A stretch of 64,000 nucleotides of DNA from an uncultured Candidatus Sumerlaeota bacterium (lineage in GTDB: Bacteria > Bacillota > SLNR01): the NCBI GenBank assembly GCA_964600665.1, contig CAZRKC010000003.1, positions 24,209 to 88,208 of the forward strand, given 5' to 3'. The first letter of the stretch is position 1. Every line of letters begins with the position of its first letter. Below the pieces are notes generated by a model. The model saw only the letters and a list, made by a program, of their open reading frames with translations, was not told where the DNA came from and did no database searches. Position numbers and translations under genes: made by a program. Of this stretch, positions 1 to 64,000 are shown piece by piece.

Positions 1-627
1 GCTGTAAAGGATTCAATACAAACCTTTTCCTTAAGTATATCGGAGGAATGAATAAAGGCAGACCAAACGATGAGGACATCAAGCATGCAAATGAATTTGC
101 ATCAAATCTTGTGAATATGCAATTGAATAAAATGCATATTTAACGACTTGCCGGCATCGAGCAATGCTATAAATTGATTATCGTAAAAATTGAACTTATG
201 TAATTTTTTCCAGTATATGCAGCTAAGCGAGCGAAATGCAAAATAAGTCAAGTTAGTTTCAGTGTGTTAAATTCTTCGCTGCCATTTTTGAGCATTCTCC
301 CAGCGGGTGAACGTTTGAATGCGAAAGCACCTTGTAGGTGAACAGTTGACACATTAGGCTCATTTATCAGAGATAGCACCGGTTCCGGAGCACTACGGAT
401 CATAAAGATATTGCCAGCACTGGCTGTTCCCATGCCTCAAGAGGATTATGAAGATCGTGGAATAGAAATCTGCAGTTGCTTCTTGTTGTTCAGGATCTTT
501 TAGGAATAGGTGTGATTGAAAACCCATATTCACTCTTTGACTTCGGAATCAAGTAGTCAATGCATCAAGAGCAAAGGAATTTGAAATATCGTGAGCCTTA
601 ATCGAATTGAAAGAGAGGAATATCTGA

Positions 628-1278
628 ATGAAATATCTTCAAAAGCTCGGTGGATTTTCTGCTTTTTATCTGGCAATGTCGTATGTATTCGGATTTGCAA
701 TTTTTATTATCGTACTCGATTATCCAAGTATTACAAACCCGTCTCAAAAGATGGAGTTGATAGTCAATCAGAAGGACATAATCTTCACGACAAATATCTT
801 AATGTATGTGCTTTTTGGTTTCTTCCTTATATTTTTGAACTTGGCTCTTTATGAAAAGCTTAAAGATAAGACACCGATTTTAATTAAAATTGCCACGAGT
901 GTAGGTATTGTATGGGCGGCCTTGTTAATTGGAAGCGGGATGGTTTCAAATGCTGGACTTATTCCGGCAATTACATTGTATCAAGCCGATCCTGTTCAGG
1001 GTACAACCTACTGGTATGCGATCGAAACGATTGCAAATGGTTTGGGAGGACAGAATGGAGAAATCTTAGGAGGGGTTATGACATTATTAATCAGTGTCGC
1101 AGGATTAAGAGGGGGATTGTTACCGAAGAATTTGAATTTTCTAGGCATCATCGTAGGTGTTGTAGGTATTATCACAATACTGCCTGGATTTGTGTCGTTT
1201 GTATCGATATTTGCCATGAGTCAGATTATATGGTTCATCTGGCTTGGAATTATCCTGGTGAAAACAACCCGTGATTAA
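628..1278 (+). CDS. Multi-pass membrane protein of unknown function (DUF4386-like)
   Basis: 216-aa ORF with a purine-rich RBS (AGAGAGGA) before the ATG. It has about six hydrophobic segments and no catalytic motif I recognise. Confidence 0.55.
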   Translation: MKYLQKLGGFSAFYLAMSYVFGFAIFIIVLDYPSITNPSQKMELIVNQKDIIFTTNILMYVLFGFFLIFLNLALYEKLKDKTPILIKIATSVGIVWAALLIGSGMVSNAGLIPAITLYQADPVQGTTYWYAIETIANGLGGQNGEILGGVMTLLISVAGLRGGLLPKNLNFLGIIVGVVGIITILPGFVSFVSIFAMSQIIWFIWLGIILVKTTRD

Positions 1279-1798
1279 ATGGTATACTGAAAATTCCTGG
1301 TTCTAAACAGCTCTGGCAATATAACGGTAGTTGTATCCTCATTAGGCCGGAATACATGCACCATGTATGGAGCGATAACTTTGCAGAGGCCCGGTTAAAA
1401 AGCGGCCAGAGAGATAGATGCCTTCACATCACCGATGGGCATACCCGAGAATATCTGACTAACATACCCAGACGGAACTCGACGCATAGAGGATCATCGG
1501 AACTCTATCCGATCTATGTGTTAGGAAAAGGAAGTCTGTTACATTCGCAGCGATAACGGGGTGAGTTTAGAGCTCGCAAATTAAGAAAAAGGCAATATTT
1601 GATGGCTGTGAAAACCTCCTTTATTGAACCCAACTGTCTTTAGGAGAAAGATTATGGTGAAAGCTTTTGTGGTGCAGCTCAAGAATTTTCCCGCAATGCG
1701 GTGTCCTTCGGTTGAGACACTCAAGTATTAGAAATAACTGTCTACCAATACCTTAGGCCTTAGGGTATGAACCCTAAGGCCCGATCTTCATCTGATTA

Positions 1799-3007
1799 TT
1801 ACTGCAAAAGTTTGGAGATAACTTTGGAAAAACGGCGGACACCCTCTGTTATCTTTTCTTCGTTAACAGCGGTGAAACACAGCCGAGCCTGATTGTAGCC
1901 TTTCCCTTCAACCGAATAGAAAGCGGGGCCGGGACGATATGCGACACCTGCTTCTACGGCGCCCTTTAGCAATTTTATACCATCGATTTTGTCTTCCGGG
2001 ATGGTAACCCATAGGAAATAACCGCCTTTCGGTTTGGTCCAGGTGACGCAATCTGGCATGTATTTTGCTAGTGCGGCAATCATGGTGTCCCGTCGATGCT
2101 TGTATAGACTGCGAGACTTATCCACATGCCGGGTAAGTTCCCCTCGCAGACTGAATTCAGCCGCGAGAGCTTGTGTCAAGGTACTACCCATAAGCGAAGT
2201 CAGACCTTTCGCTATTGACAAGACCTTGATTAATTCCGAATCCGCGACGATCCAACCAATTCGTGTACCAGGAGCGAAGGTCTTGGAGAAAGTGGTTGTG
2301 TAGATAACAAGTCCTGTGTCATCCAGAGATTTGATGGTTGGCAATTCATCGCCTTCGAAACGAAATTCGATGTATGGATCATCTTCAAAAATTAGCACAC
2401 CGTATTGTATGGCGATTTCGAGGAGAGTTTTTCGGCGTTCAAGTGTAAGGGTCACACCGGTCGGGTTCTGATAATTCGGAAGAATGTACATGAATTTAAC
2501 CTGGATCCCTACGGCCGCTTTCTCAGCTATTGCTTTTTCAACTAATGCAGGAATAATGCCGTCGTCGTCGATTGGAATGGGTAGCAGTTTACAACCAAAG
2601 GCCTCGAAAGAAGCAATCGCCCCTGAATAACTGGGTTCCTCGATAATGATATAATCGCCTGGATTGATGAACACTTTGCAGAGCAGGTCAAAAGATTCTG
2701 TAGAACCATTGACGAGCATGACATTATCGATGGTTACTTTTTGGTTTTTGGTGTTGGCCAAATCAACTATGTGTTCCCTCAATTTCCTGTAACCAGCAGA
2801 AGGTCCGTATTGCAAAGCAATCGATGCTTCATTGTCCATGACATAATTGGTAATCTCTTTAATTTGATCTTTTGGAAAATAATCTGAGTCTGGGAAACCA
2901 GCGGAGAAGTGGATAGCGTCTGGTTTCAAGTCTGCCAGGATTTGATTGATGATTGACGGGCTGGCTTTGTTTACAAGCGGCGTATAAAGATGTGAGTATT
3001 TAGACAT
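1799..3007 (-). CDS. PLP-dependent aminotransferase, class I/II fold (Aro8/LysN-like)
   Basis: 402 aa with LQYGPSAGY, NYQNPTG and FSKTFAPGTRIGW (PLP-lysine region) motifs. It is divergently paired with a MocR-type regulator. Confidence 0.85.
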   Translation of the reverse strand: MSKYSHLYTPLVNKASPSIINQILADLKPDAIHFSAGFPDSDYFPKDQIKEITNYVMDNEASIALQYGPSAGYRKLREHIVDLANTKNQKVTIDNVMLVNGSTESFDLLCKVFINPGDYIIIEEPSYSGAIASFEAFGCKLLPIPIDDDGIIPALVEKAIAEKAAVGIQVKFMYILPNYQNPTGVTLTLERRKTLLEIAIQYGVLIFEDDPYIEFRFEGDELPTIKSLDDTGLVIYTTTFSKTFAPGTRIGWIVADSELIKVLSIAKGLTSLMGSTLTQALAAEFSLRGELTRHVDKSRSLYKHRRDTMIAALAKYMPDCVTWTKPKGGYFLWVTIPEDKIDGIKLLKGAVEAGVAYRPGPAFYSVEGKGYNQARLCFTAVNEEKITEGVRRFSKVISKLLQ

Positions 3008-3145
3008 TGCTTAACCTCCCTTAAATCTTTTTAGATGCTGTTGTAATGGTGACCCTTGGAAAAACGAGCTGCAGCGATTCCCAATATATGGGCATGGCGG
3101 CGAGTGTTTGCATGACGCGATGAATAATAATACCTACAATTTAAT

Positions 3146-3179
3146 TATAGTATTGCACTCTATGAGAGGCAATAGTATA
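3146..3179. promoter_or_regulatory. Inverted repeat in the aminotransferase/MocR divergent intergenic region (candidate MocR operator)
   Basis: TATAGTATTGC (3146-3156) and GCAATAGTATA (3169-3179) are reverse complements at 10 of 11 positions, separated by 12 bp, just upstream of the regulator start. Confidence 0.4.
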
Positions 3180-3211
3180 ATTGTATGGAGGACAATAAAA
3201 GAGGTGGTTGT

Positions 3212-4615
3212 ATGTACGACAAATATGGAAATGAAATAACCTGGGTGCCGAACTTGAAGGAAAGCGATCTGCCAAAGTATCAGGCAATAGCATACTGCCT
3301 GGAAGAGGATATTAACTTGGGGCTATTGGTTCCGGGCCAGAAACTCCCACCCCAAAGGGTAATCGCTGATTATTTAGGTATTAACCACAGCACTGTGACT
3401 CGAGCCTACAAGCTTTGCGCCGAAAAGGGGTTAATTCATGGCACCGTAGGACGGGGTACTTATATTAGTAGCTATGCAGGTATTCCCCAGCATCTATTGA
3501 CCGATAATCTTGACCCGACAATTATTGAGATGGGTATGGTGTTGCCGCTTTATGAGACAAATGAAAAAATAATTACTTTTCTTCAGGATGCGTATCAGAA
3601 GGTAGACTATAGTTCGGTTTTGCAGTATGTTCCACCGGAAGGGCTCAACAAACATAGATATGTCGCCTCCAAATGGCTCCGGAATTTCAAATTGGAGTGC
3701 CCGCCGGAGCAGATAATCATTACCACCGGTTCCCAGAGTGCGCTGGCAGTCATCCTAACCAGTCTGTTCAATAAAGGTGACCGAATAGTAGCCGATGAAT
3801 ACACCTATACCGGCTTAAAAAGTCTGGCGAATCTCCTGGGGATTATCTTGATACCGGTCAGAACAGGTATTGATGGCATTGATACAACCGAATTGGAGGT
3901 TGCCTGCCGCCGGGAAAAGGCAAAAGGGATATATCTGATTCCTGACTGTCACAACCCTACAACTGCGTCAATTACCCCAGACAAAAGAAAAGAAATAGCA
4001 CGAATCATTGTTGATGGCAACTTGCTACTCATTGAAGATGGGACCTTTGGTTTTTCAGTGCCTGATAAAGTCAGGCCAATCAGCAGTTATATCCCAGACA
4101 ACAGCTTATTTATCACTGGTGTGTCCAAGATGCTGAGTACTGCTTTCCGGATTGCCTATATTGCTTCCCCTCGTAAATATCTCAAGCAACTAACTCATGG
4201 CACCAATCTGATTACTCGGATGGCATCTGCCCTGAACGCCGAACTCGTATCACTGCTACTGAACTCACCTTCGTACGAGCAAATTGTTGCAGATAAAATG
4301 GAAAAGATAAAAGAGCGCAACCGGTTAGTCGATGAAGTTCTATGTGATTATGATCTGGTTCCCAATGAAAATTCATTTTTCCGGTTTTTACTGCTTCCGC
4401 CCGCAATGTCGGATGATGAGGTTGAACGCGCTTGTCTGGCTAGGGGAGTGCAGATTTTTTCAGCTAAACGGTTCTCCGTAAGTGCTGAATCAAAGATTAA
4501 TGCGGTTCGTTTATCAGTTAGCGGCCCCCGTGATTCCGGAGAATTAAGAAAAGGGTTACAAATAATCAGAGAAGTCCTCGAGTCGACGGCAGTGAGTACG
4601 CAACTGATACTTTGA
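3212..4615 (+). CDS. MocR/PdxR-type transcriptional regulator (GntR winged-HTH fused to aminotransferase-like domain)
   Basis: N-terminal HTH (LPPQRVIADYLGINHSTVTRAYKLCAEKGLI) followed by a ~350-aa fold-type-I PLP domain. Start moved from 3185 to ATG 3212, which lies behind AGAGGTGG. Confidence 0.85.
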   Translation: MYDKYGNEITWVPNLKESDLPKYQAIAYCLEEDINLGLLVPGQKLPPQRVIADYLGINHSTVTRAYKLCAEKGLIHGTVGRGTYISSYAGIPQHLLTDNLDPTIIEMGMVLPLYETNEKIITFLQDAYQKVDYSSVLQYVPPEGLNKHRYVASKWLRNFKLECPPEQIIITTGSQSALAVILTSLFNKGDRIVADEYTYTGLKSLANLLGIILIPVRTGIDGIDTTELEVACRREKAKGIYLIPDCHNPTTASITPDKRKEIARIIVDGNLLLIEDGTFGFSVPDKVRPISSYIPDNSLFITGVSKMLSTAFRIAYIASPRKYLKQLTHGTNLITRMASALNAELVSLLLNSPSYEQIVADKMEKIKERNRLVDEVLCDYDLVPNENSFFRFLLLPPAMSDDEVERACLARGVQIFSAKRFSVSAESKINAVRLSVSGPRDSGELRKGLQIIREVLESTAVSTQLIL

Positions 4616-9102: not shown

Positions 9103-10437
9103 ATGCTCAAATTCCCGGAGGGGTTTATGTGGGGAACGGCCACTTCTGCTTACCAGATTGAAGGAGCTTGGAATCAAGACGGAAAAGCCATGAGCATTTG
9201 GGATGAATTTGTGAGAAGGCCCAACACCATCAAAAACGGGGATACCGGGGATATTGCCTGTGATCACTATACTCGTTACAAAGAAGATATTCGTCTACTT
9301 AAAGAACTTGGAGTCAAAGCATACCGGTTTTCCCTGTCATGGCCGCGGATCATCCCAGCAGGTGCTGGTGCTGTCAACCAGAAAGGTTTGGACTTTTATA
9401 AACGCATCCTGGATGAACTGCACCACCATGGCATCATGCCCTTTGTCACTTTGTACCACTGGGATCTGCCCCAGGCACTTCAAGAACACGGCGGCTGGAC
9501 CCAGCGGGATATCGTGGGGCATTTTTCTGACTACACCGAAACGGTGGTCAAAAACCTGGGCGGTATGATCCATCACTATATCATCATCAATGAACCGTCG
9601 GTGATTGCCTATGTGGGCCATTATCAAGGGGTTCACGCACCGGGCATGGCAGATAAAAAAGCATATATCGCCGCCACCCATCATTTGAATCTCAGCCACG
9701 GGGATAGTGTCGAGGTCATCAAATCCAGCTATCCCAAAGCCACGGTGGGCTCCACATATACGCATTTCCCCATCCGCCCTGTCAGCCAGAAGCATGACGA
9801 TATTCGCGCTGCGGCCATCATGGATGCCGCCTGGACAAGGGTATATCTGGACCCCATATTCTTGGGACACTATCCGGCGATCCTGGCTCAAGAATTCGAA
9901 CCACTCATTAGAGACGGCGATCTGGATCGGATCAACAATCCCGGTGACTTTTTGGGGATCAACCACTATTCTCCGGATTATGCCCGGGCGGATCAAACCG
10001 ATGCGCTGGGGGCTGTCCTGGACTATGCCCATAATTCCATGGAGGATTTAAAGGATGATGACCATACCGACCTGGGATGGATCATTGAGCCGGAGGCATT
10101 GCACGAAACCCTGCTAGATGTGAAAAATCAATATGGCTCCCCGGTGGTCTACATCACCGAAGGGGGATGTGCCTACAATGATGAACCGGGTCAGGATGGC
10201 CGGATCCATGACCAGCGCCGGATCCGATACTATGAACGATACCTGACCCAGGTCAAAAAGGCAATGGATGCGGGTGTAGATGTGCGGGGATATTTCGCAT
10301 GGAGTTTTCTGGATAATTTCGAGTGGGGGGAAGGGTACGATCCCCGCTTCGGACTCGTCTATGTGGACTTCAAACATGGGTTGAAGCGGATTCCAAAGGA
10401 CAGCTACTATTGGTATCGGGAGCTGATCCATGCCTAG
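9103..10437 (+). CDS. Glycoside hydrolase family 1 beta-glucosidase
   Basis: FPEGFMWGTATSAYQIEGA, TLYHWDLPQ, the acid/base IINEP motif and a nucleophile motif YITEGG (a variant of ITENG). ATG 9103 is preferred. Confidence 0.9.
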   Translation: MLKFPEGFMWGTATSAYQIEGAWNQDGKAMSIWDEFVRRPNTIKNGDTGDIACDHYTRYKEDIRLLKELGVKAYRFSLSWPRIIPAGAGAVNQKGLDFYKRILDELHHHGIMPFVTLYHWDLPQALQEHGGWTQRDIVGHFSDYTETVVKNLGGMIHHYIIINEPSVIAYVGHYQGVHAPGMADKKAYIAATHHLNLSHGDSVEVIKSSYPKATVGSTYTHFPIRPVSQKHDDIRAAAIMDAAWTRVYLDPIFLGHYPAILAQEFEPLIRDGDLDRINNPGDFLGINHYSPDYARADQTDALGAVLDYAHNSMEDLKDDDHTDLGWIIEPEALHETLLDVKNQYGSPVVYITEGGCAYNDEPGQDGRIHDQRRIRYYERYLTQVKKAMDAGVDVRGYFAWSFLDNFEWGEGYDPRFGLVYVDFKHGLKRIPKDSYYWYRELIHA

Positions 10438-56573: not shown

Positions 56574-57323
56574 ATGAACATCAAATGTGTCATCGCGTAT
56601 GACGGAACTGACTTTTGCGGGTATCAACGGCAGAAGAACTTACGCACCGTGCAGGGAGAATTGGAACAGGCAGCGGCTAAACTTTTCAGAGAACCGGTGA
56701 CTGTGTATGCGTCTGGTCGAACGGACAGTGGTGTCCACGCCAGAGGACAGACCATTAACTTCCGGATCACTCAGCAGATTCCGGTGGAGCGCATCCCATT
56801 TGCCTTGAATAGTTTGCTGCCGGACGATATCGTTGTCAAAACAGCAATGACCGTACCCGATAATTTTCACGCCCGGATCCACGCTATGGAAAAAACGTAT
56901 GCATACTACATTTTGAACCAGTCACAACCGGATCCGTTTTTAAAGCGCTACTGCCTTCACATCCCCCAGCCCCTGGATGTGGAGCGAATGCAGCAAGGTG
57001 CGTCACATGTGGTAGGAACCCATGATTTTTCCACTTTTTTGGCGACTGGCAGCCGCGTGACCGACGCGGTCCGCCGGGTGACCCGATCTGAGATGATCCA
57101 AAAAGAAGACATGATCGCATACCAGGTGTCTGCCAATGGATTCCTCTACAACATGGTGAGAATCATCATCGGGACACTGATTGAAATGGGCAGGGGGAAA
57201 ACTGACCCCGATGATATGCCAGGGATAATCAGGGCCAAAAACCGGGATGCAGCAGCTGAGACAGCGCCGCCCCATGGGCTGTTTCTGGAGAAGGTCATGT
57301 ATGACAGGGCATCTTTCACTTGA
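56574..57323 (+). CDS. truA: tRNA pseudouridine(38-40) synthase
   Basis: YDGTDFCGYQRQ and GRTDSGVHARGQ (catalytic Asp). Confidence 0.92.
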   Translation: MNIKCVIAYDGTDFCGYQRQKNLRTVQGELEQAAAKLFREPVTVYASGRTDSGVHARGQTINFRITQQIPVERIPFALNSLLPDDIVVKTAMTVPDNFHARIHAMEKTYAYYILNQSQPDPFLKRYCLHIPQPLDVERMQQGASHVVGTHDFSTFLATGSRVTDAVRRVTRSEMIQKEDMIAYQVSANGFLYNMVRIIIGTLIEMGRGKTDPDDMPGIIRAKNRDAAAETAPPHGLFLEKVMYDRASFT

Positions 57324-57347
57324 CATGGAAGGACCGGCTATTATAAA
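57320..57347 (+). promoter_or_regulatory. Possible promoter for rplM-rpsI (followed by a ~100-nt L13-leader-like UTR)
   Basis: TTGACA (57320-57325, overlapping the truA stop), 16-nt spacer, TATAAA (57342-57347). Confidence 0.4.
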
Positions 57348-57445
57348 ATATCCCTGTGACACATAGCCGGACATGGCTTGCCGACCCAACGCGGGCGGTT
57401 TACATACCAAAAAAGATTGAGTCTTGATTGACAGGAGGGAATTTT

Positions 57446-57880
57446 ATGAAAACTTATTCGCCGAAACCGGCCGATATAGAGCACAAGTGGCTTGTTGTAG
57501 ACGCAACAAACCAAACGCTCGGCCGTCTGGCCAGTGAAGTGGCCAGCATTCTCCGGGGTAAACACAAACCCATCTTCGCTCCTCATATGGATACCGGTGA
57601 TTATGTGATCGTGATCAACGCTGAAAAAATCCATTTGACAGGTAAAAAGATGACGGACAAGTTCTACCACCACCACACAGGTTATCCAGGTGGTCTCAAG
57701 TCCATATCGTATGGCAAGCTCATTGCCACCAAGCCGGAAAAAGTGATCGAACTGGCTGTCAAAGGCATGCTGCCCCATAATAAACTGGGTGCTGCCATGT
57801 TCAAGAAATTGAAAGTGTATGCAGGACCTGAACATCCCCATTCAGCACAACAGCCAGCAGAGATGAAAATCGTCGGCTGA
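57446..57880 (+). CDS. rplM: Ribosomal protein L13
   Basis: [23 protein letters not shown] 57446 follows CAGGAGGG. Confidence 0.95.
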
Positions 57881-57904
57881 TTCTAACGAGAAGGAGGTAC
57901 AATC

Positions 57905-58297
57905 ATGGCACTTGTCAATTATGCCGGAACAGGTCGTCGGAAGCAGTCTGTTGCCCGGGTTCGTCTCATTCCCGGTTCTGGACAGATCGTCGTTAACGGC
58001 CGTCCGATGGAAGATTATTTCAAATTGAAAACCCTTCATATGATCATTCAGCAGCCATTGAATACGGCCGGTGTGATCGAAAAATATGACGTCTTGGTTA
58101 ATGTGTATGGTGGTGGCGTTTCCGGACAGGCGGGCGCAGTTCGTCACGGTATCGCCCGGGCACTGTTGAAGGTTGATCCGGAGTACCGTCCAGGACTGAA
58201 GAAAGCCGGTTTTCTCACCCGGGATCCCCGGATGGTGGAAAGAAAGAAGTATGGCCTGAAGAAAGCGCGGAAAGCGCCTCAGTTCTCAAAGCGGTAA
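57905..58297 (+). CDS. rpsI: Ribosomal protein S9
   Basis: [14 protein letters not shown] and the C-terminal [12 protein letters not shown]. Confidence 0.95.
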
Positions 58298-58305
58298 TCA
58301 TGCAG

Positions 58306-58337
58306 AAGGGAGGATATCGGTCCTTCCTTTTATTTTT
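58306..58337 (+). terminator. Rho-independent terminator 1 after rpsI
   Basis: AAGGGAGGA/TCCTTCCTT 9-bp stem (one G-U pair) followed by TTATTTTT. Confidence 0.7.
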
Positions 58338-58338
58338 C

Positions 58339-58376
58339 CCTGCTCACACCGGTCATCATGCTGAGCAGGTTTTTTT
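58339..58376 (+). terminator. Rho-independent terminator 2 (in tandem)
   Basis: CCTGCTCA/TGAGCAGG stem followed by TTTTTTT. Confidence 0.65.
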
Positions 58377-58428
58377 CTGTAGAAATGGAATACATCTGTT
58401 AAGAATGTTTTGACTGGGGGTTTGCACA

Positions 58429-59790
58429 TTGGATCGAGTATTGGTAGGAGGACGGGTCATCGATCCGGAATCCGGATTGGACAAAATCGTCAACATAGGC
58501 ATAGAAGGCAATAAGATTACCACCATCAGCTGTAGCGATATCGAAGGTGATGACATCATATCCGTGGCGGGACTGGTTGTGGCGCCTGGATTCATTGATA
58601 TCCACATGCACGAAGATCCCATAACCCATTTGGAAGGCGAAGTATCCTACCCCACCTTTGACCGGATGGTATCCATGGGGGTCACCACTGCTGTGGGTGG
58701 AAACTGCGGTTACAGTCGTTATCCCCTTCAGCCATATTTCGCGCTTCTGGAAGCGCAAGGGATACCCCTTAATTACGCAGGGTTTTCAGGATACATCAGT
58801 ATCAGGGAAGCCATAGGTCTGGTTGATCGATACCAACCGGCCGACGCCGACCAGAAGGTGCAGATCCAGGATTTGATTCGTCAAGAACTGGAAAGTGGCG
58901 CTGTGGGGATCTCATTCGGATTGGAATACGCCCCCGGTATCACGACCAAGGAAGCAATTGATGCCGCAAAGGTGGTTGCAGAATTTCCCGGGCGGCTGAT
59001 CAGCGCTCATTTCCGGGCAGATTGTGAGCATGCGGTGGAGTCCATTGAAGAATTAACCGAAATTGCGCGACTGACCGGTGTCCCCATGCAGATTTCGCAC
59101 CTTGGCAGTTGTGCCGCATTTCCCGGCATTATGGAAGATGCCCTGCGGACATTGGATGAGGCACGTTCGGAGGATATCGATGTCATGGGAGATTGCTATC
59201 CATACAATTGCTTTTGCACTTCCATCGGCTCAGCAGTCTTCGATCCCGGTTGTTTTGCAAAATGGGGGGTTGAACCATCCGCACTGATGGTGGCCGAAGG
59301 TCCGCATCGGGGTGAACGTTGCGATGAAGCATTGTTTGCCCAGCTGCGAGTCGAAGCACCGGAAACCATGGTAATCGGATTTGTCATGAATGATGATGAG
59401 GTGATTCGAGCCATTCGTCATCCACTGATCATGCTCTGCAGTGACGGTTCATTCAGGGGCGATCAAGGACATCCCCGAGGGGCAGGAACGTTTCCCCGGG
59501 TTTTGGGGCGCATGGTTCGGGAAGAAAAGACCATCAGTATGATGGAAGCGCTGGCGAAAATGACCATCGTACCCGCCAGACGCTTGAATCTTAAACACAA
59601 AGGGCGGGTCACAGTCGGCGCAGATGCGGATCTGGTGATTTTTGATCCGGAACGGATCATGGACAAGGCAGATTTTGATTCCCCTACCGACGCACCGGAG
59701 GGGATCGAGATGGTTATTGTGCAAGGTACGCCAGTGGTGCGAAACAATCGGATCGTATCAAGACAGGCAGGTCAAGTCATACGTTTTTAA
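58429..59790 (+). CDS. N-acyl-D-amino-acid deacylase (D-aminoacylase) family amidohydrolase
   Basis: TTG start; APGFIDIHMHED, GVTTAVGGNCGYS, and the C-terminal ADLVIFDPERIMDKADFDSPTDAPEGIEMVIVQG typical of the family. Confidence 0.8.
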   Translation: MDRVLVGGRVIDPESGLDKIVNIGIEGNKITTISCSDIEGDDIISVAGLVVAPGFIDIHMHEDPITHLEGEVSYPTFDRMVSMGVTTAVGGNCGYSRYPLQPYFALLEAQGIPLNYAGFSGYISIREAIGLVDRYQPADADQKVQIQDLIRQELESGAVGISFGLEYAPGITTKEAIDAAKVVAEFPGRLISAHFRADCEHAVESIEELTEIARLTGVPMQISHLGSCAAFPGIMEDALRTLDEARSEDIDVMGDCYPYNCFCTSIGSAVFDPGCFAKWGVEPSALMVAEGPHRGERCDEALFAQLRVEAPETMVIGFVMNDDEVIRAIRHPLIMLCSDGSFRGDQGHPRGAGTFPRVLGRMVREEKTISMMEALAKMTIVPARRLNLKHKGRVTVGADADLVIFDPERIMDKADFDSPTDAPEGIEMVIVQGTPVVRNNRIVSRQAGQVIRF

Positions 59791-59801
59791 GGGGGATGGC
59801 G

Positions 59802-60110
59802 ATGGAAATCAAAGCAGTTCCGGGTGATTGGGTCGAAGTGTACACAATCGTGCTCCCTGCCGGGGAGCGAGCACCACAGGTTCCGGCAGATACGCAGCAA
59901 GTCCCGTTGGAAATGCGGGTTCGGGGATTTTTGATGCACGAAGCTGGGATCGGTCAGCCGGCCGTGATTCAGACATTGACGGGCAGAGAAATGTCCGGTA
60001 CACTGTCAGCGATCAAGCCCGCATATCCCCATGGGTTCGGGGCGCCAGTCCCGGAAATGCTGGCGATCGGGCGCGAACTCCGGGCATTGCTGGAGGTGGA
60101 CGAAGGATGA
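59802..60110 (+). CDS. ortA: 2-amino-4-oxopentanoate thiolase alpha subunit (OrtA-like)
   Basis: ~102 aa (GDWVEVYTIVLPAGERAPQVPADTQQVPLEMRVRGFL...). This matches my recollection of the OrtA family. Its stop overlaps the start of the PLP beta subunit. Confidence 0.7.
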   Translation: MEIKAVPGDWVEVYTIVLPAGERAPQVPADTQQVPLEMRVRGFLMHEAGIGQPAVIQTLTGREMSGTLSAIKPAYPHGFGAPVPEMLAIGRELRALLEVDEG

Positions 60111-61513
60111 AGGATATGAGCTATACCGGTGTGATGGCGCGTAAGAATGAAATCATGAAACAATCCGTGGGAATTGATTTTACCGAGTTTGAGAGCGGGT
60201 CGATTGCGTTTGATTACGAAGGAATGATGTCAAAAACCGGATACTCTTTAGAAGAAGTCATCCACATCCAAAAAGAAAGTAATGTGGGAAACACTCCGTT
60301 ATTGGAACTGAAACAGATTACCCGACTCGTGCGGAAAATAGCAACCAAGGGTAAGGGGGCGCGCATATTCGTCAAGGACGAAGCTGCCAATCCCTCGGGT
60401 AGCTTCAAGGCCCGACGGGCAGCGGTATCGGTCCATCATGCGAAGAAACTGGGCTATGCCGGGGTCATCGCTGCCACCAGCGGAAATTACGGTGCCGCAG
60501 TGGCCTCGCAAGCAGCCATGAAAGGTTTGCGGAGCATCATCGTCCAAGAAGTCTACGACAGCCTCGGCCGGGGGCAGCCGGAAATCATTGAAAAGGGGCG
60601 AAAGTGCGAAGCCTACGGAGCCGATGTGTATCAATTGAGTGTCGGGCCGGAATTATTTTATGTTGCCCTGCAATTATTAGAAGAAACCGGTTATTTCAAT
60701 GCGTCCCTCTATACGCCTTTTGCCATTGCCGGAATTGAGACCCTGGGGTATGAAATCGGGCGGGAAGTTTCCCAACGGTTCGGGAGAGTGCCGGATTGTG
60801 TGGTCGTGACCCATGCCGGTGGCGGTAATATGACCGGGACTGCCAGAGGCCTGATCAAGGCGGGGTGTCATGATACACGGTTGGTGGGGGCCAGTGTGGA
60901 CTTAAAAGGCCTTCATATGGCCAGTGATGGGGATTTCAACCGGAAGTCCTTTACAACGGGACATACGGGTTTTGGTATGCCGTTTACGACCCAGCCGGAT
61001 CGGGCCGATGTGCCGCGAAATGCGGCGCGGAGCTTGCGGTACATGGACCGTTATGTAACCGTGACCCAAGGAGAAGTGTTCTATGTAACGGAGATGCTGG
61101 CGCAATTGGAGGGTCTTGAACGAGGGCCTGCCGGAAACACGTCCCTGGCAGCTGCTTTTGCGATAGCCCGGGAGATGGATGAGGATCAGATTCTGGTGGT
61201 CCAGGAGACAGAATACACCGGTGCCGGAAAACACCCCATCCCCCAGTTGACCTTTGCCAGACAGAACGGAATCGAGATTCGCCGGGGTGACCCTAAAGAT
61301 AGTCAACCGGGGAAGAGTATCATCATCCCCAGGCATCCAGAAGAGATCCGGGTGGTGGATCAGGATATGGATCAATTACGCCGGTCGTATTTGAAAAAAG
61401 CAGTGGAAGGCCACCAAACCAGGCCATTGACATCTGAGGATCTGGCCTTTTTGGCAGATGAGACCAAAACCAGTCTGGAATATATCCGTTCCTTCATGCA
61501 GTCGTTAAGTTAG
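60107..61513 (+). CDS. ortB: 2-amino-4-oxopentanoate thiolase beta subunit (OrtB-like, PLP, Trp-synthase-beta fold)
   Basis: 468 aa starting from ATG 60107 (ATGA overlap with ortA). PLP-lysine motif NPSGSFKARRA and a GGGN loop. The 93 upstream codons of the ORF-track call are the ortA region read in another frame. Confidence 0.75.
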   Translation: MKDMSYTGVMARKNEIMKQSVGIDFTEFESGSIAFDYEGMMSKTGYSLEEVIHIQKESNVGNTPLLELKQITRLVRKIATKGKGARIFVKDEAANPSGSFKARRAAVSVHHAKKLGYAGVIAATSGNYGAAVASQAAMKGLRSIIVQEVYDSLGRGQPEIIEKGRKCEAYGADVYQLSVGPELFYVALQLLEETGYFNASLYTPFAIAGIETLGYEIGREVSQRFGRVPDCVVVTHAGGGNMTGTARGLIKAGCHDTRLVGASVDLKGLHMASDGDFNRKSFTTGHTGFGMPFTTQPDRADVPRNAARSLRYMDRYVTVTQGEVFYVTEMLAQLEGLERGPAGNTSLAAAFAIAREMDEDQILVVQETEYTGAGKHPIPQLTFARQNGIEIRRGDPKDSQPGKSIIIPRHPEEIRVVDQDMDQLRRSYLKKAVEGHQTRPLTSEDLAFLADETKTSLEYIRSFMQSLS

Positions 61514-61542
61514 GGCTTGTTCTGAAAATGGAGGTGGATACC

Positions 61543-62946
61543 ATGGAAGGAATCGTGTGGGGCGGCATCAGTCCGCATCCTCCCCTGATCATTCCTGCCA
61601 TCGGGCAGAATGATATTCGCCAGGTTTTTGATACCTGTACGGGCATGACCCAGTTGGCCAGGAGTCTAAGGGAAGCAAAACCTCAGGTGTGTGTGCTCAT
61701 TTCTCCCCATGGACCCTTCTTCTATGATGGTTTGCCCGTTTGGGATGTACCGCACATGGAAGGCAGTTTTGCTCATTTCGGATTCCCGAATATCCGGTTT
61801 GGCCTGGATATCGATCAAACACTAGCGAAAGCCATTGTTGAAGTCGGACACGCACAGGGAATATCATTCATCTCGCTGGATGAAAGCATGATCCAGCGTA
61901 CATCCGTCAGACGTGAACTGGATCATGGGGTGCTGGTTCCCTGGTTTTATATCCGCCAGGAAGGAATTGCGATTCCCGCTGTCATTATTTCCATGGGGAT
62001 GCTGACCTATCAGGAGCTATTTCGGGCGGGCAAAGCCATTCAGACAGCCGCGAAACAAGATGGACGTCGAATCGCCATACTGGCCAGCGGAGATATGTCT
62101 CACGCATTGAGTCAGTCTGCCCCTTCCGGGTACAATCCAGCCGGGAAAGAATTCGATGAAACACTGGTGGCGATGCTTCGGGAGAATCGATTGCAGGATA
62201 TCCTGACCATCGACCCGGCACTGATCGAACGGGCAGCCGAATGCGGCTATCGACCGGTGACCCTGTTGTTGGGGGCTCTGGACGGATTGCAAGTCAAGAC
62301 TCAGGTCCATTCATATGAAGGGCCCTATGGTGTCGGGTACCTGACGGCTTCCATGGAAGTGGCAGGGGAAACCGATTCAGCGCATATGCCAAAGAGCAGT
62401 CCGGATCCAGCCAGTGAAACTTTGGACACTTCGCGAACCCAAGAGCATCCCCTGGTGCAACTGGCACGCAATACACTGGAAGCGCATATTCACCAAAAAC
62501 CATTTTCACCCCCAGATCCCCTTCCTTCAGAGTGGACCAGACGGGCGGGCGCATTCGTCTCCATTAAAAAAATGGGGCAGCTGCGGGGGTGTATCGGCAC
62601 CATTTCTGCTGTACGGGAGAATCTGGCTATGGAGGTTATGGCTAACGCCATCAGCGCTGGCACAGAGGACCCCCGGTTTTACCCGGTGACAGTGGCTGAA
62701 CTCCCACATTTAGTATATTCGGTGGATGTCTTGATGGAGCCTGAACCGGTGACGGATCGGGGACACCTGGATGTGCATCGGTACGGTATCATCGTCCGTC
62801 AAGGGAGGCGAACCGGGCTGTTGCTGCCGGATCTGCCGGGTATTGAAAAAGTGGATGATCAGATTCAAATCGCCTGCCAGAAAGCCGGTATCGATCCAGA
62901 CGGTACATTCACCATCGAACGCTTTGAAGTCATTCGTTATCAGTGA
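61543..62946 (+). CDS. Fusion protein: class-III extradiol dioxygenase/Memo-like N-domain + AMMECR1 C-domain (AmmeMemoRadiSam system protein A type)
   Basis: N-domain: GGISPHPPLIIP, ISPHGP, LDHGVLVP, ASGDMSHAL. C-domain: GAFVSIKKMGQLRGCIGT and EDPRF (AMMECR1 hallmarks). ATG 61543 follows GGAGGTGG. Confidence 0.8.
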   Translation: MEGIVWGGISPHPPLIIPAIGQNDIRQVFDTCTGMTQLARSLREAKPQVCVLISPHGPFFYDGLPVWDVPHMEGSFAHFGFPNIRFGLDIDQTLAKAIVEVGHAQGISFISLDESMIQRTSVRRELDHGVLVPWFYIRQEGIAIPAVIISMGMLTYQELFRAGKAIQTAAKQDGRRIAILASGDMSHALSQSAPSGYNPAGKEFDETLVAMLRENRLQDILTIDPALIERAAECGYRPVTLLLGALDGLQVKTQVHSYEGPYGVGYLTASMEVAGETDSAHMPKSSPDPASETLDTSRTQEHPLVQLARNTLEAHIHQKPFSPPDPLPSEWTRRAGAFVSIKKMGQLRGCIGTISAVRENLAMEVMANAISAGTEDPRFYPVTVAELPHLVYSVDVLMEPEPVTDRGHLDVHRYGIIVRQGRRTGLLLPDLPGIEKVDDQIQIACQKAGIDPDGTFTIERFEVIRYQ

Positions 62947-62959
62947 GGAGCGAGTGGTG

Positions 62960-63946
62960 ATGAAAGAAGCGATGTTTTACAGCCATCAGACTGATGGGCG
63001 GATCCAATGTCACCTCTGCCCCCACGGGTGTCAGATAAAACCCGGAGGACGGGGAATTTGCCGTGTGCGCGTCCATCAGAACGGCCGTTTGGAAACGACC
63101 AACTTTGCTCAGGTTTCGGCTTGTGCCTTAGACCCCGTGGAGAAGAAACCATTGTACCATTTCCATCCGGGAAAGACCATTTATTCACTGGGGACATTTG
63201 GATGTAACTTATCCTGTCAATTCTGTCAAAACTGGGGAATATCCCAGGGAGATCCCCCGGTTAGAACGTTGCTGCCTCCGGATGCTGTTGCGACAGCTCA
63301 ATTGCATGCCCGTGATGGTGACTGCATTGGATTGGCCTACACCTATTCTGAACCGGTGGTGTGGTACGAATATGTGCTGGAAACGGCCAAATTGGCACGG
63401 GAGGCGGGGCTTAAGAATGTGATGGTGACCAACGGCATGATTCAACCAGAACCCTTAGGCATGCTTTTACCGTGGCTGGATGCCATGAACATCGACTTGA
63501 AGGCATTCTCATCTGATTTCTACCGAGAGATCTGTGGCGGGTATATAGAACCGGTAAAGGATGCAATCCGACTGGCAGCTGCATCCTGTCACCTTGAACT
63601 GACAGTCTTGCTGATCCCTGGATTAAACGATGGCGATGCCGAGATTCGGGCGTTATCTTCATGGGTAGCTGAAATCGATCCATTGATTCCTGTCCATTTT
63701 TCCCGATATTTCCCGCAGTACAAGATGACGCGGCCGCCGACATCCATCGCGACCTTGCAGAAAGCTAGGGATATTGCCAAAGAGGTATTGTCCTTCGTCT
63801 ATGTGGGGAATGTTCCGCAGATGGCTGAAAGCAATACCATCTGTCCTCGGTGCGGCCACTTATTGGTCCGCCGGGACCGGGGATTCGTGGAATTGGGACT
63901 GGCCGCTGACGGGACATGCCCCCAATGCGGGTATGATGGATTATAA
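62960..63946 (+). CDS. AmmeMemoRadiSam-system radical SAM enzyme (PFL-activase-like)
   Basis: N-terminal Cys-rich CHLCPHGC...GICRVR, radical SAM CNLSCQFCQNW, C-terminal CPRCG...CPQCG. ATG 62960 follows GAGGAG. Confidence 0.8.
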   Translation: MKEAMFYSHQTDGRIQCHLCPHGCQIKPGGRGICRVRVHQNGRLETTNFAQVSACALDPVEKKPLYHFHPGKTIYSLGTFGCNLSCQFCQNWGISQGDPPVRTLLPPDAVATAQLHARDGDCIGLAYTYSEPVVWYEYVLETAKLAREAGLKNVMVTNGMIQPEPLGMLLPWLDAMNIDLKAFSSDFYREICGGYIEPVKDAIRLAAASCHLELTVLLIPGLNDGDAEIRALSSWVAEIDPLIPVHFSRYFPQYKMTRPPTSIATLQKARDIAKEVLSFVYVGNVPQMAESNTICPRCGHLLVRRDRGFVELGLAADGTCPQCGYDGL

Positions 63947-64000
63947 AAGCAATTTCCGAATTCTGGAGGGTTTAACACTTAATTGCCGAATACTCTTCAA

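Follow-up and report, generated by a model that had tools for sequence, protein, structure and literature searches.

Why should a D-aminoacylase-like amidohydrolase, the two subunits of a thiolase from ornithine degradation (OrtA and OrtB) and the AmmeMemoRadiSam pair, comprising a Memo-AMMECR1 fusion protein and a radical S-adenosylmethionine (SAM) enzyme, be encoded side by side in one block? The five genes are located at positions 58429-63946 of a 64,000-nucleotide (nt) stretch of contig CAZRKC010000003.1 from an uncultured Candidatus Sumerlaeota bacterium, and this whole stretch is referred to here as the window. The AMMECR1/Memo/radical SAM system extends from archaea to humans and, to our knowledge, has no known substrate, and the initial annotation of the window put forward the adjacency to ortAB as a functional handle on it. 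Comparison with about 170 related loci overall indicates that the block is probably made up of three known modules, which stand side by side in a conserved syntenic slot and do not form one pathway. The adjacency of ortAB and the pair is most readily taken as an accident of gene order peculiar to the lineage, and not as a clue to the function of the pair.

One of these modules would be a complete AmmeMemoRadiSam pair in its usual place after truA-rplM-rpsI(-cwlD) and before housekeeping or arginine genes. Another would be ortA-ortB, in a slot where some relatives appear to carry a whole ornithine cluster directly upstream of the pair, while the third would be the D-aminoacylase-family amidohydrolase which heads the block. 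The present layout may have arisen with ortAB alone staying in the slot in the clade of the window, ord, oraS, oraE, or4 and orr being absent and the amidohydrolase lying upstream of ortA.

Chromosomal neighbourhoods of the pair and of ortAB

Two sets of loci, both of which are samples and not censuses, carry the comparison. The fusion-anchored set comprises the best 80 metagenome loci fetched with an alignment of the fusion protein, and the OrtB-anchored set the best 80 species-level genome loci, with up to 10 kb per side, fetched with an OrtB alignment, the window clade itself falling outside the latter. Marker genes were counted by tblastn using the five window proteins and markers from reference loci. 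In the fusion-anchored set, ortA, ortB, ord, oraE and orr were found within 10 kb of the fusion gene in 0/80 loci. The radical SAM gene adjoins the fusion gene in 61/80, and cwlD or rpsI occurs upstream of the pair in seventeen of the forty-four loci having at least 3 kb of upstream sequence. The recurrent layout is truA-rplM-rpsI-cwlD-fusion-radical SAM, followed by argC-argJ-argB-argD-ornithine transcarbamoylase (OTCase), cdaA-cdaR-glmM or arcC-OTCase. The same slot is used in Desulfotomaculum nigrificans (L086) and in L170 (L170:7242-10286), with a gap of 12 nt between cwlD and the fusion gene in L170. Since the slot recurs without ortAB in the fusion-anchored loci, in many Bacillota the pair is a long-standing resident, independent of ortAB, of the region which follows rplM-rpsI(-cwlD). 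In the Bacillota gene string rpoA-rplQ-ecfA1-ecfA2-ecfT-truA-rplM-rpsI...cwlD...cdaA-cdaR-glmM-glmS, the window block takes up the exact interval from rpsI to cdaA, and on the same strand. It differs from this string in that the window clade has ortAB and the amidohydrolase added, while cwlD is absent from all members of the clade save L004.

A placement of the pair directly after cwlD, which encodes a spore-cortex amidase and itself follows rplM-rpsI, is seen in L170, L088, L090-L092, L096, L106, L107, L109, L111, L113, L116, L125 and L128. The cwlD gene is the strongest neighbour signal for the pair, and this may be plain synteny.

Among the OrtB-anchored loci, ortA is found directly upstream of ortB in 80/80. 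Within 10 kb of OrtB occur ord (71/80 loci), oraS (71/80), oraE (62/80), the GlmL-like or-4 (57/80) and orr (49/80), whereas the fusion and radical SAM pair is present in only three loci, or in 3/53 of those having at least 8 kb downstream of ortB, and the amidohydrolase in two. The three pair-bearing loci (L016, L064 and L083) carry a complete ord-ortA-ortB-oraS-oraE-or4-orr cluster upstream of the pair, which stands directly after orr, not ortB, and about 5 kb from ortB; the cluster identities in L083 were assigned by NCBIfam, with orr below the cut-off yet the sole match. In the genome of Anoxybacter fermentans (CP016379.1) the fusion gene is located some 9 kb into the record and the ornithine cluster (DapB-like ord, ortA, ortB, NUDIX, oraS, oraE, MutL-like) at 3.01-3.03 Mb of 3.56 Mb, so that the two systems are approximately 0.55 Mb apart. 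OrtB and the fusion protein of Thermosediminibacter litoriperuensis are reported on contigs differing in size. A P-loop nucleoside triphosphatase of about 440 amino acids (aa) is encoded after the radical SAM or OTCase gene in five loci (L083:18931-20253, L016:16812-17543, L064:19721-21034, L085:11673-12989 and L113). This protein shows a weak cobW match and a distant likeness to cyclic 2,3-diphosphoglycerate synthetase, and one of the five loci is that of A. fermentans, with an otherwise unrelated context.

The full block of five genes between rpsI and cdaA is restricted to one clade represented by five loci (window/L001, L003, L004, L168 and L169), the members of which share 76-78 % (OrtB), 78-88 % (RpsI) and 77-86 % (CdaA) amino acid identity with the window. 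As the concatenated OrtA and OrtB of this clade are monophyletic in 193/200 bootstrap replicates, the five loci amount to approximately one evolutionary event. The wider OrtAB clade, which also takes in L016, L064 and L083, received support in only 57/200 replicates, and common ancestry of all the pair-adjacent clusters is thus not established by these trees. No conserved co-localisation of ortAB and the pair was observed across independent lineages, all five-gene cases falling within the one clade.

Two further relatives carry other combinations of the modules. In L087 the amidohydrolase gene is followed, after a gap of 98 nt, by fusion-radical SAM-cdaA, with no ortAB (L087:7928-10000). This locus is about as close to the window as L003, L168 and L169 (cdaA 83 % versus 84-86 %; glmM 64 % versus 64-65 %), and closer than L004 at both cdaA and glmM. 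By contrast, L005, which has the closest OrtB (74 %) among the Genome Taxonomy Database (GTDB) loci in the best-80 set, has rpsI-cwlD-ortA-ortB and lacks both the amidohydrolase and ord, and the following 645 nt contain no fusion gene. Given that L087 lacks ortAB and L005 lacks the amidohydrolase, the three modules have been gained or lost independently. The tight ortB/fusion junction is likewise not conserved, since the 29 nt of the window are replaced in L003 by a non-coding spacer of 472 nt (L003:9423-9894), which showed no sign of a terminator, a promoter or a gene remnant. A permissive tblastn search of the non-coding gaps of L003, L004, L005 and L087 for remnants of ord, oraS and oraE returned chance-level matches only, and in-situ deletion from a full ornithine cluster is for that reason plausible, yet not demonstrated. 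The rpsI region of L087 matches RpsI as overlapping fragments only, at 50 % identity, which suggests that this gene is frameshifted or misassembled.

The proposal that adjacency to ortAB would serve as a functional handle for the AmmeMemoRadiSam system did not survive this comparison, with 0/80 fusion-anchored and 3/80 OrtB-anchored loci combining the two and L087 having no ortAB. Of the neighbourhood statistics which the initial annotation had suggested, a positive part stands, as the arrangement recurs in L003, L004, L168 and L169 and the pair follows a full cluster in L016, L064 and L083, but otherwise they were largely negative.

The five gene products

The genes ortA (59802..60110, + strand) and ortB (60107..61513, + strand) code for the predicted small and pyridoxal 5'-phosphate (PLP)-dependent subunits, respectively, of 2-amino-4-oxopentanoate thiolase. 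OrtA was matched by NF040739 (119.8 bits; cut-off 70) and PF22010 (117 bits), and OrtB by NF040741 (838.8 bits; cut-off 550), so that both exceed the curated equivalog cut-offs, and the genes are adjacent and ATGA-coupled. The PLP-dependent OrtAB enzyme converts (2R)-2-amino-4-oxopentanoate and coenzyme A to acetyl-coenzyme A and D-alanine, and the family matches confirm ortA-ortB of the window as the predicted genes for this thiolase. The window OrtB keeps every invariant column (~200) of a 24-sequence OrtB alignment, and is thus under strong constraint. OrtAB forms part of the oxidative ornithine degradation pathway of the Clostridia (orr, oraSE, ord, ortAB; PMC8803604). The window shares an equivalog-level ortA-ortB with an ATGA overlap with the clostridial ornithine cluster (Clostridium sticklandii, C. 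difficile), and OrtA/OrtB of the window show 66-78 % identity when compared with OrtB of complete ornithine clusters. It differs from the clostridial cluster in that ord, oraS, oraE, or-4 and orr are missing from the 64-kb window as well as the 7 kb beyond it, and in that the amidohydrolase occupies the usual ord position. The missing ord, oraSE and orr may be located elsewhere in the genome.

Stand-alone ortA-ortB genes, lacking ord, oraS and oraE in the 10 kb around them, were also observed in L019, L020, L043, L053 and L076 (around position 10001; 4326 in L053). In the first three of these, ortAB adjoins a gene for a membrane protein of approximately 475 aa and a two-component-like gene pair. 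Such stand-alone loci suggest a second use of the thiolase, independent of the ornithine cluster.

The first gene of the block (58429..59790, + strand; 453 aa, TTG start) codes for an amidohydrolase placed by Pfam matches and alignment to Protein Data Bank structures in the N-acyl-D-amino-acid deacylase (D-aminoacylase) family. The protein passes the Pfam models Amidohydro_3 and Amidohydro_1, while its best NCBIfam match, PRK09061 ('amidohydrolase family protein'; 303.7 bits), is below the cut-off of 340. The nearest solved structures are 3GIP (N-acyl-D-glutamate deacylase; E 2e-55) and 1M7J (D-aminoacylase; E 1e-49). The HxH motif (DIHMH), the Cys of GNCG, the His residues of SAH and ISH and the Asp of CSDG align in position with 3GIP, and the aligned HxH, GNCG Cys, two His and SDG Asp are presumably metal ligands, as in the structure of 1M7J. 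The window protein shares the amidohydrolase fold family of the Alcaligenes D-aminoacylase (1M7J) and the Bordetella N-acyl-D-glutamate deacylase (3GIP), but it is only distantly similar to them (E 2e-55 over two stretches), and 'D-aminoacylase-like' would seem a fair description. Amidohydrolases of the D-aminoacylase family are common in amino-acid-fermenting Clostridia and seldom found near ortB, with the two OrtB-anchored loci given above as the count within 10 kb. In L066, an Alkaliphilus metagenome-assembled genome, a 44 %-identical amidohydrolase is located between two M20-family peptidase genes (426-3953), directly upstream of a complete ornithine cluster, and in L077 a 28 %-identical amidohydrolase adjoins ord. 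The L066 arrangement hints that, in some organisms, hydrolases of this kind may supply the pathway with ornithine or related amino acids.

The fusion gene (61543..62946, + strand) encodes a Memo/LigB-like N-terminal domain (AmmeMemoRadiSam protein B) and a C-terminal AMMECR1 domain (protein A). The latter was recognised by TIGR04335 (130.1 bits; cut-off 99) and PF01871 (150 bits), and the former marginally by TIGR04336 (28.4 bits; cut-off 26) and clearly by PF02900 (LigB; 137.3 bits; cut-off 26.3). The radical SAM gene (62960..63946, + strand) codes for an enzyme with a TIGR04337 score of 327.4 bits (cut-off 220) and a PF04055 match, and its translation carries CNLSCQFC, which conforms to the CxxxCxxC motif. 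The two-domain LigB and AMMECR1 architecture is present in all 120 homologues listed, out of 6567 matches. As the Pfam and NCBIfam models match there, the Memo protein is not missing but forms the N-terminal half of the fusion, an architecture which is common in the Bacillota. The fusion protein and the radical SAM enzyme would together make up a complete two-gene AmmeMemoRadiSam system. All three components of that system (TIGR04335/TIGR04336/TIGR04337) are thus found in the window, adjacent to one another. When set against other AmmeMemoRadiSam systems, the window proteins are ordinary, whereas the upstream neighbours, ortAB and the amidohydrolase, are unusual and limited to one clade. The description of Memo-AMMECR1-radical SAM systems is credited to Burroughs et al. 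2019 in PMC7159879. Among the papers searched, none ties AmmeMemoRadiSam to ornithine genes.

The gene identities which had been assigned from the sequence alone were upheld, with OrtA, OrtB, AMMECR1, the Memo-like domain and the radical SAM enzyme all scoring above the NCBIfam cut-offs and the amidohydrolase aptly named. All the proteins belong to described families in which they are unexceptional, and the novelty is confined to the clade-specific gene order.

Spacing and boundaries of the block

The list of open reading frames (ORFs) and reading of the sequence agree on five tightly spaced + strand ORFs, as first described, when the 59802 start of ortA and the 61543 start of the fusion gene are taken from the alternatives (59796/59802 and 61528/61543). 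With these starts, ortA follows the amidohydrolase gene after 11 nt, the ATGA overlap of ortA and ortB covers 60107-60110, and the ortB-fusion and fusion-radical SAM gaps are 29 and 13 nt, respectively. Purine-rich Shine-Dalgarno sequences precede four starts: GGGGG (58429, TTG), AGGGGGA (59802), GGAGGTG (61543) and GGAG (62960). Both the 59802 and the 61543 start have theirs at the proper distance, and the former corresponds to the JGI gene call in L001, allowing for a 2-nt intergenic indel. The ribosome-binding sites had been described as GGAGG-type; purine-rich sites are indeed present before 58429, 59802, 61543 and 62960, but the label fits the first gene only loosely (GGGGG).

Upstream, the block is preceded by tandem intrinsic terminators after rpsI (58304..58376, + strand), each a hairpin with a T tract. 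The first stem-loop spans 58304-58331 and is followed by a T run; in the second, the stem takes up 58340-58368 and the T run 58370-58376. The region 58298-58380 folds at -28.1 kcal/mol (z = -3.9), with 0/200 shuffles folding as well. The terminator pair, the ribosome-binding site and the TTG start at 58429 are kept in three relatives (L168, L169 and L003), and a conserved AAGAAT element is located upstream of the ribosome-binding site of the first gene. The two terminators which had been noted before the block are thus borne out by folding and by conservation. A sigma-70 promoter scan yielded no more than shuffled sequence would, with no site in the interval from the terminators to the first start codon, and an Rfam search over 57000-64000, with E values up to 0.1, yielded no riboswitches or leaders. 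In the same region, truA is an intact ORF of 249 aa in the window (56574-57323), and two ORFs (173 and 76 aa) in L001:3609-4362, at 97 % identity, on a contig which elsewhere nearly matches the window letter for letter; a frameshift or an assembly difference is the likely cause.

Downstream, the window ends within the 86-nt spacer between the radical SAM gene and cdaA (first part 63947..64000, + strand). The radical SAM protein is encoded with identical sequence on L001, a JGI metagenome contig of 69,860 bp from the same organism, the gene table of which continues beyond it with cdaA, cdaR (YbbR), an FAD-dependent protein, glmM and glmS, all on the same strand. The spacer contains no terminator-like structure and folds worse than its shuffles (z +2.6). 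The initial view of a five-gene operon insulated from the ribosomal genes is borne out at the upstream end, where the terminators are found, but no such boundary stands between the radical SAM gene and cdaA; by that annotation's own criteria the block has no 3' bound and the same-strand string continues. The initial annotation had also advised extending the contig in search of ord, oraS/oraE, orr or a stand-alone Memo gene, and none of these was found in the 7 kb downstream in L001, just as ord, oraS, oraE, or-4 and orr are not found in the 64-kb window. The FAD-dependent gene between cdaR and glmM encodes a PF21688 (FAD-depend_C) protein of approximately 520-550 aa (L001:12847-14415), has the same position in L003, L004, L087, L168 and L169, and breaks the usual cdaA-cdaR-glmM arrangement in the window clade.

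With short spacers and no terminators between them, the five genes are likely co-transcribed, possibly into cdaA. Such co-transcription would mirror the long co-directional gene string of the region and not a common function, operon-like spacing within long co-directional housekeeping strings being weak evidence for the latter.

Competing explanations and the meaning of the gene order

Several observations sit uneasily with three modules that share a slot and nothing more, and weigh against that reading. The five-gene layout has persisted in the window clade despite divergence of the fusion protein to 47-51 % identity. In L016, L064 and L083 the orr-pair junctions are operon-like (gaps of 6 and 12 nt and an 8-nt overlap) and arcC and/or OTCase follow the pair, so that ornithine genes lie on both sides of it. 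The upstream context is another one in L064, where rpsI and cwlD are both absent over 8.6 kb, and the block of cluster and pair there is for that reason not simply tied to the ribosomal region. Finally, 3/80 is somewhat above what random placement would give (~0.7 %, taking a span of 20 kb and a genome of 3 Mb). These points could be taken for a true functional operon, in which the pair works with OrtAB and the amidohydrolase in the processing of D-amino or 2-amino-4-oxo acids or in the maturation of the thiolase, and this explanation also draws on the tight spacing without an internal terminator, the retention of the layout in five divergent loci (window/L001, L003, L004, L168, L169) and the place of the pair directly after orr in the full ornithine clusters of L016, L064 and L083. 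It is nevertheless very unlikely. The fusion-anchored loci are devoid of ortAB (0/80) and the pair is absent from 77/80 OrtB loci, L087 retains the pair and the amidohydrolase without ortAB, the same slot holds the pair in genomes with no ornithine genes there, and the two systems are far apart in A. fermentans. The flanking order from rpsI to cdaA and glmM is constant across the clade and, because these flanking genes keep their order too, the persistence of the five genes is no more than background synteny. Furthermore, OrtB is a PLP enzyme for which we know of no need for radical SAM maturation. A related suggestion, that a subset of Bacillota recruited the pair into ornithine/arginine catabolism and that amidohydrolase, OrtAB and pair make up a minimal working core retained by the window clade, is highly doubtful in our estimation; it would account for the pair following ortB in the window clade and orr in L083, and for its place between orr and arcC/argF in L016 and L064. 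If true, it would provide the first metabolic context for the orphan AmmeMemoRadiSam system.

Two other explanations divide the block differently. A general functional tie of the Bacillota pair, be it with ornithine/arginine metabolism or with the spore-cortex amidase CwlD, appears highly improbable. The argC/argJ genes downstream of the pair in 5/80 and OTCase within 10 kb in 8/80 fusion-anchored loci, the arcC-OTCase genes of L113, the additional cases outside this set in L086, L016 and L064, and cwlD immediately upstream in many loci, at 12 nt in L170, all point in this direction, but nearly all of them share the rplM-rpsI-cwlD upstream block and, belonging to one synteny block, are not independent cases. 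The same slot is instead followed by cdaA-glmM in L098, L105, L107, L111 and the window clade, most fusion-anchored loci have none of these markers, and homologues of AMMECR1 and Memo extend far beyond the spore-formers. It is also unlikely that amidohydrolase-ortA-ortB forms a self-contained variant pathway independent of the radical SAM pair, in which the hydrolase would act on an N-acyl or peptide precursor to free either a D-amino acid or the substrate of the thiolase, and so replace the ord/oraSE/orr route. The separate occurrence of the amidohydrolase in L087 and of ortAB in L005 argues against such a trio, as do its presence near ortB in just 2/80 OrtB loci and its location, in named isolates with both genes, on separate contigs or more than 10 kb away, and the ord, oraSE and orr genes may lie elsewhere in the window genome. 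These outweigh the conservation of the trio in the window clade, the strong constraint on OrtB, the amidohydrolase homologues near ornithine genes in L066 (44 %) and L077 (28 %) and the stand-alone ortAB genes of L005, L019, L020, L043, L053 and L076.

A reliable genomic link of the AMMECR1/Memo/radical SAM system to a defined pathway would be valuable, but the link proposed for the window fails. The position of the pair is explained by the conserved gene order near rpsI/cwlD, and its association with ortAB is limited to a few related lineages. Modest by-products emerge from the comparison, namely a conserved chromosomal slot for the AmmeMemoRadiSam pair in the Bacillota, and one clade in which a truncated ornithine module, consisting of ortAB only, adjoins a D-aminoacylase-like gene.

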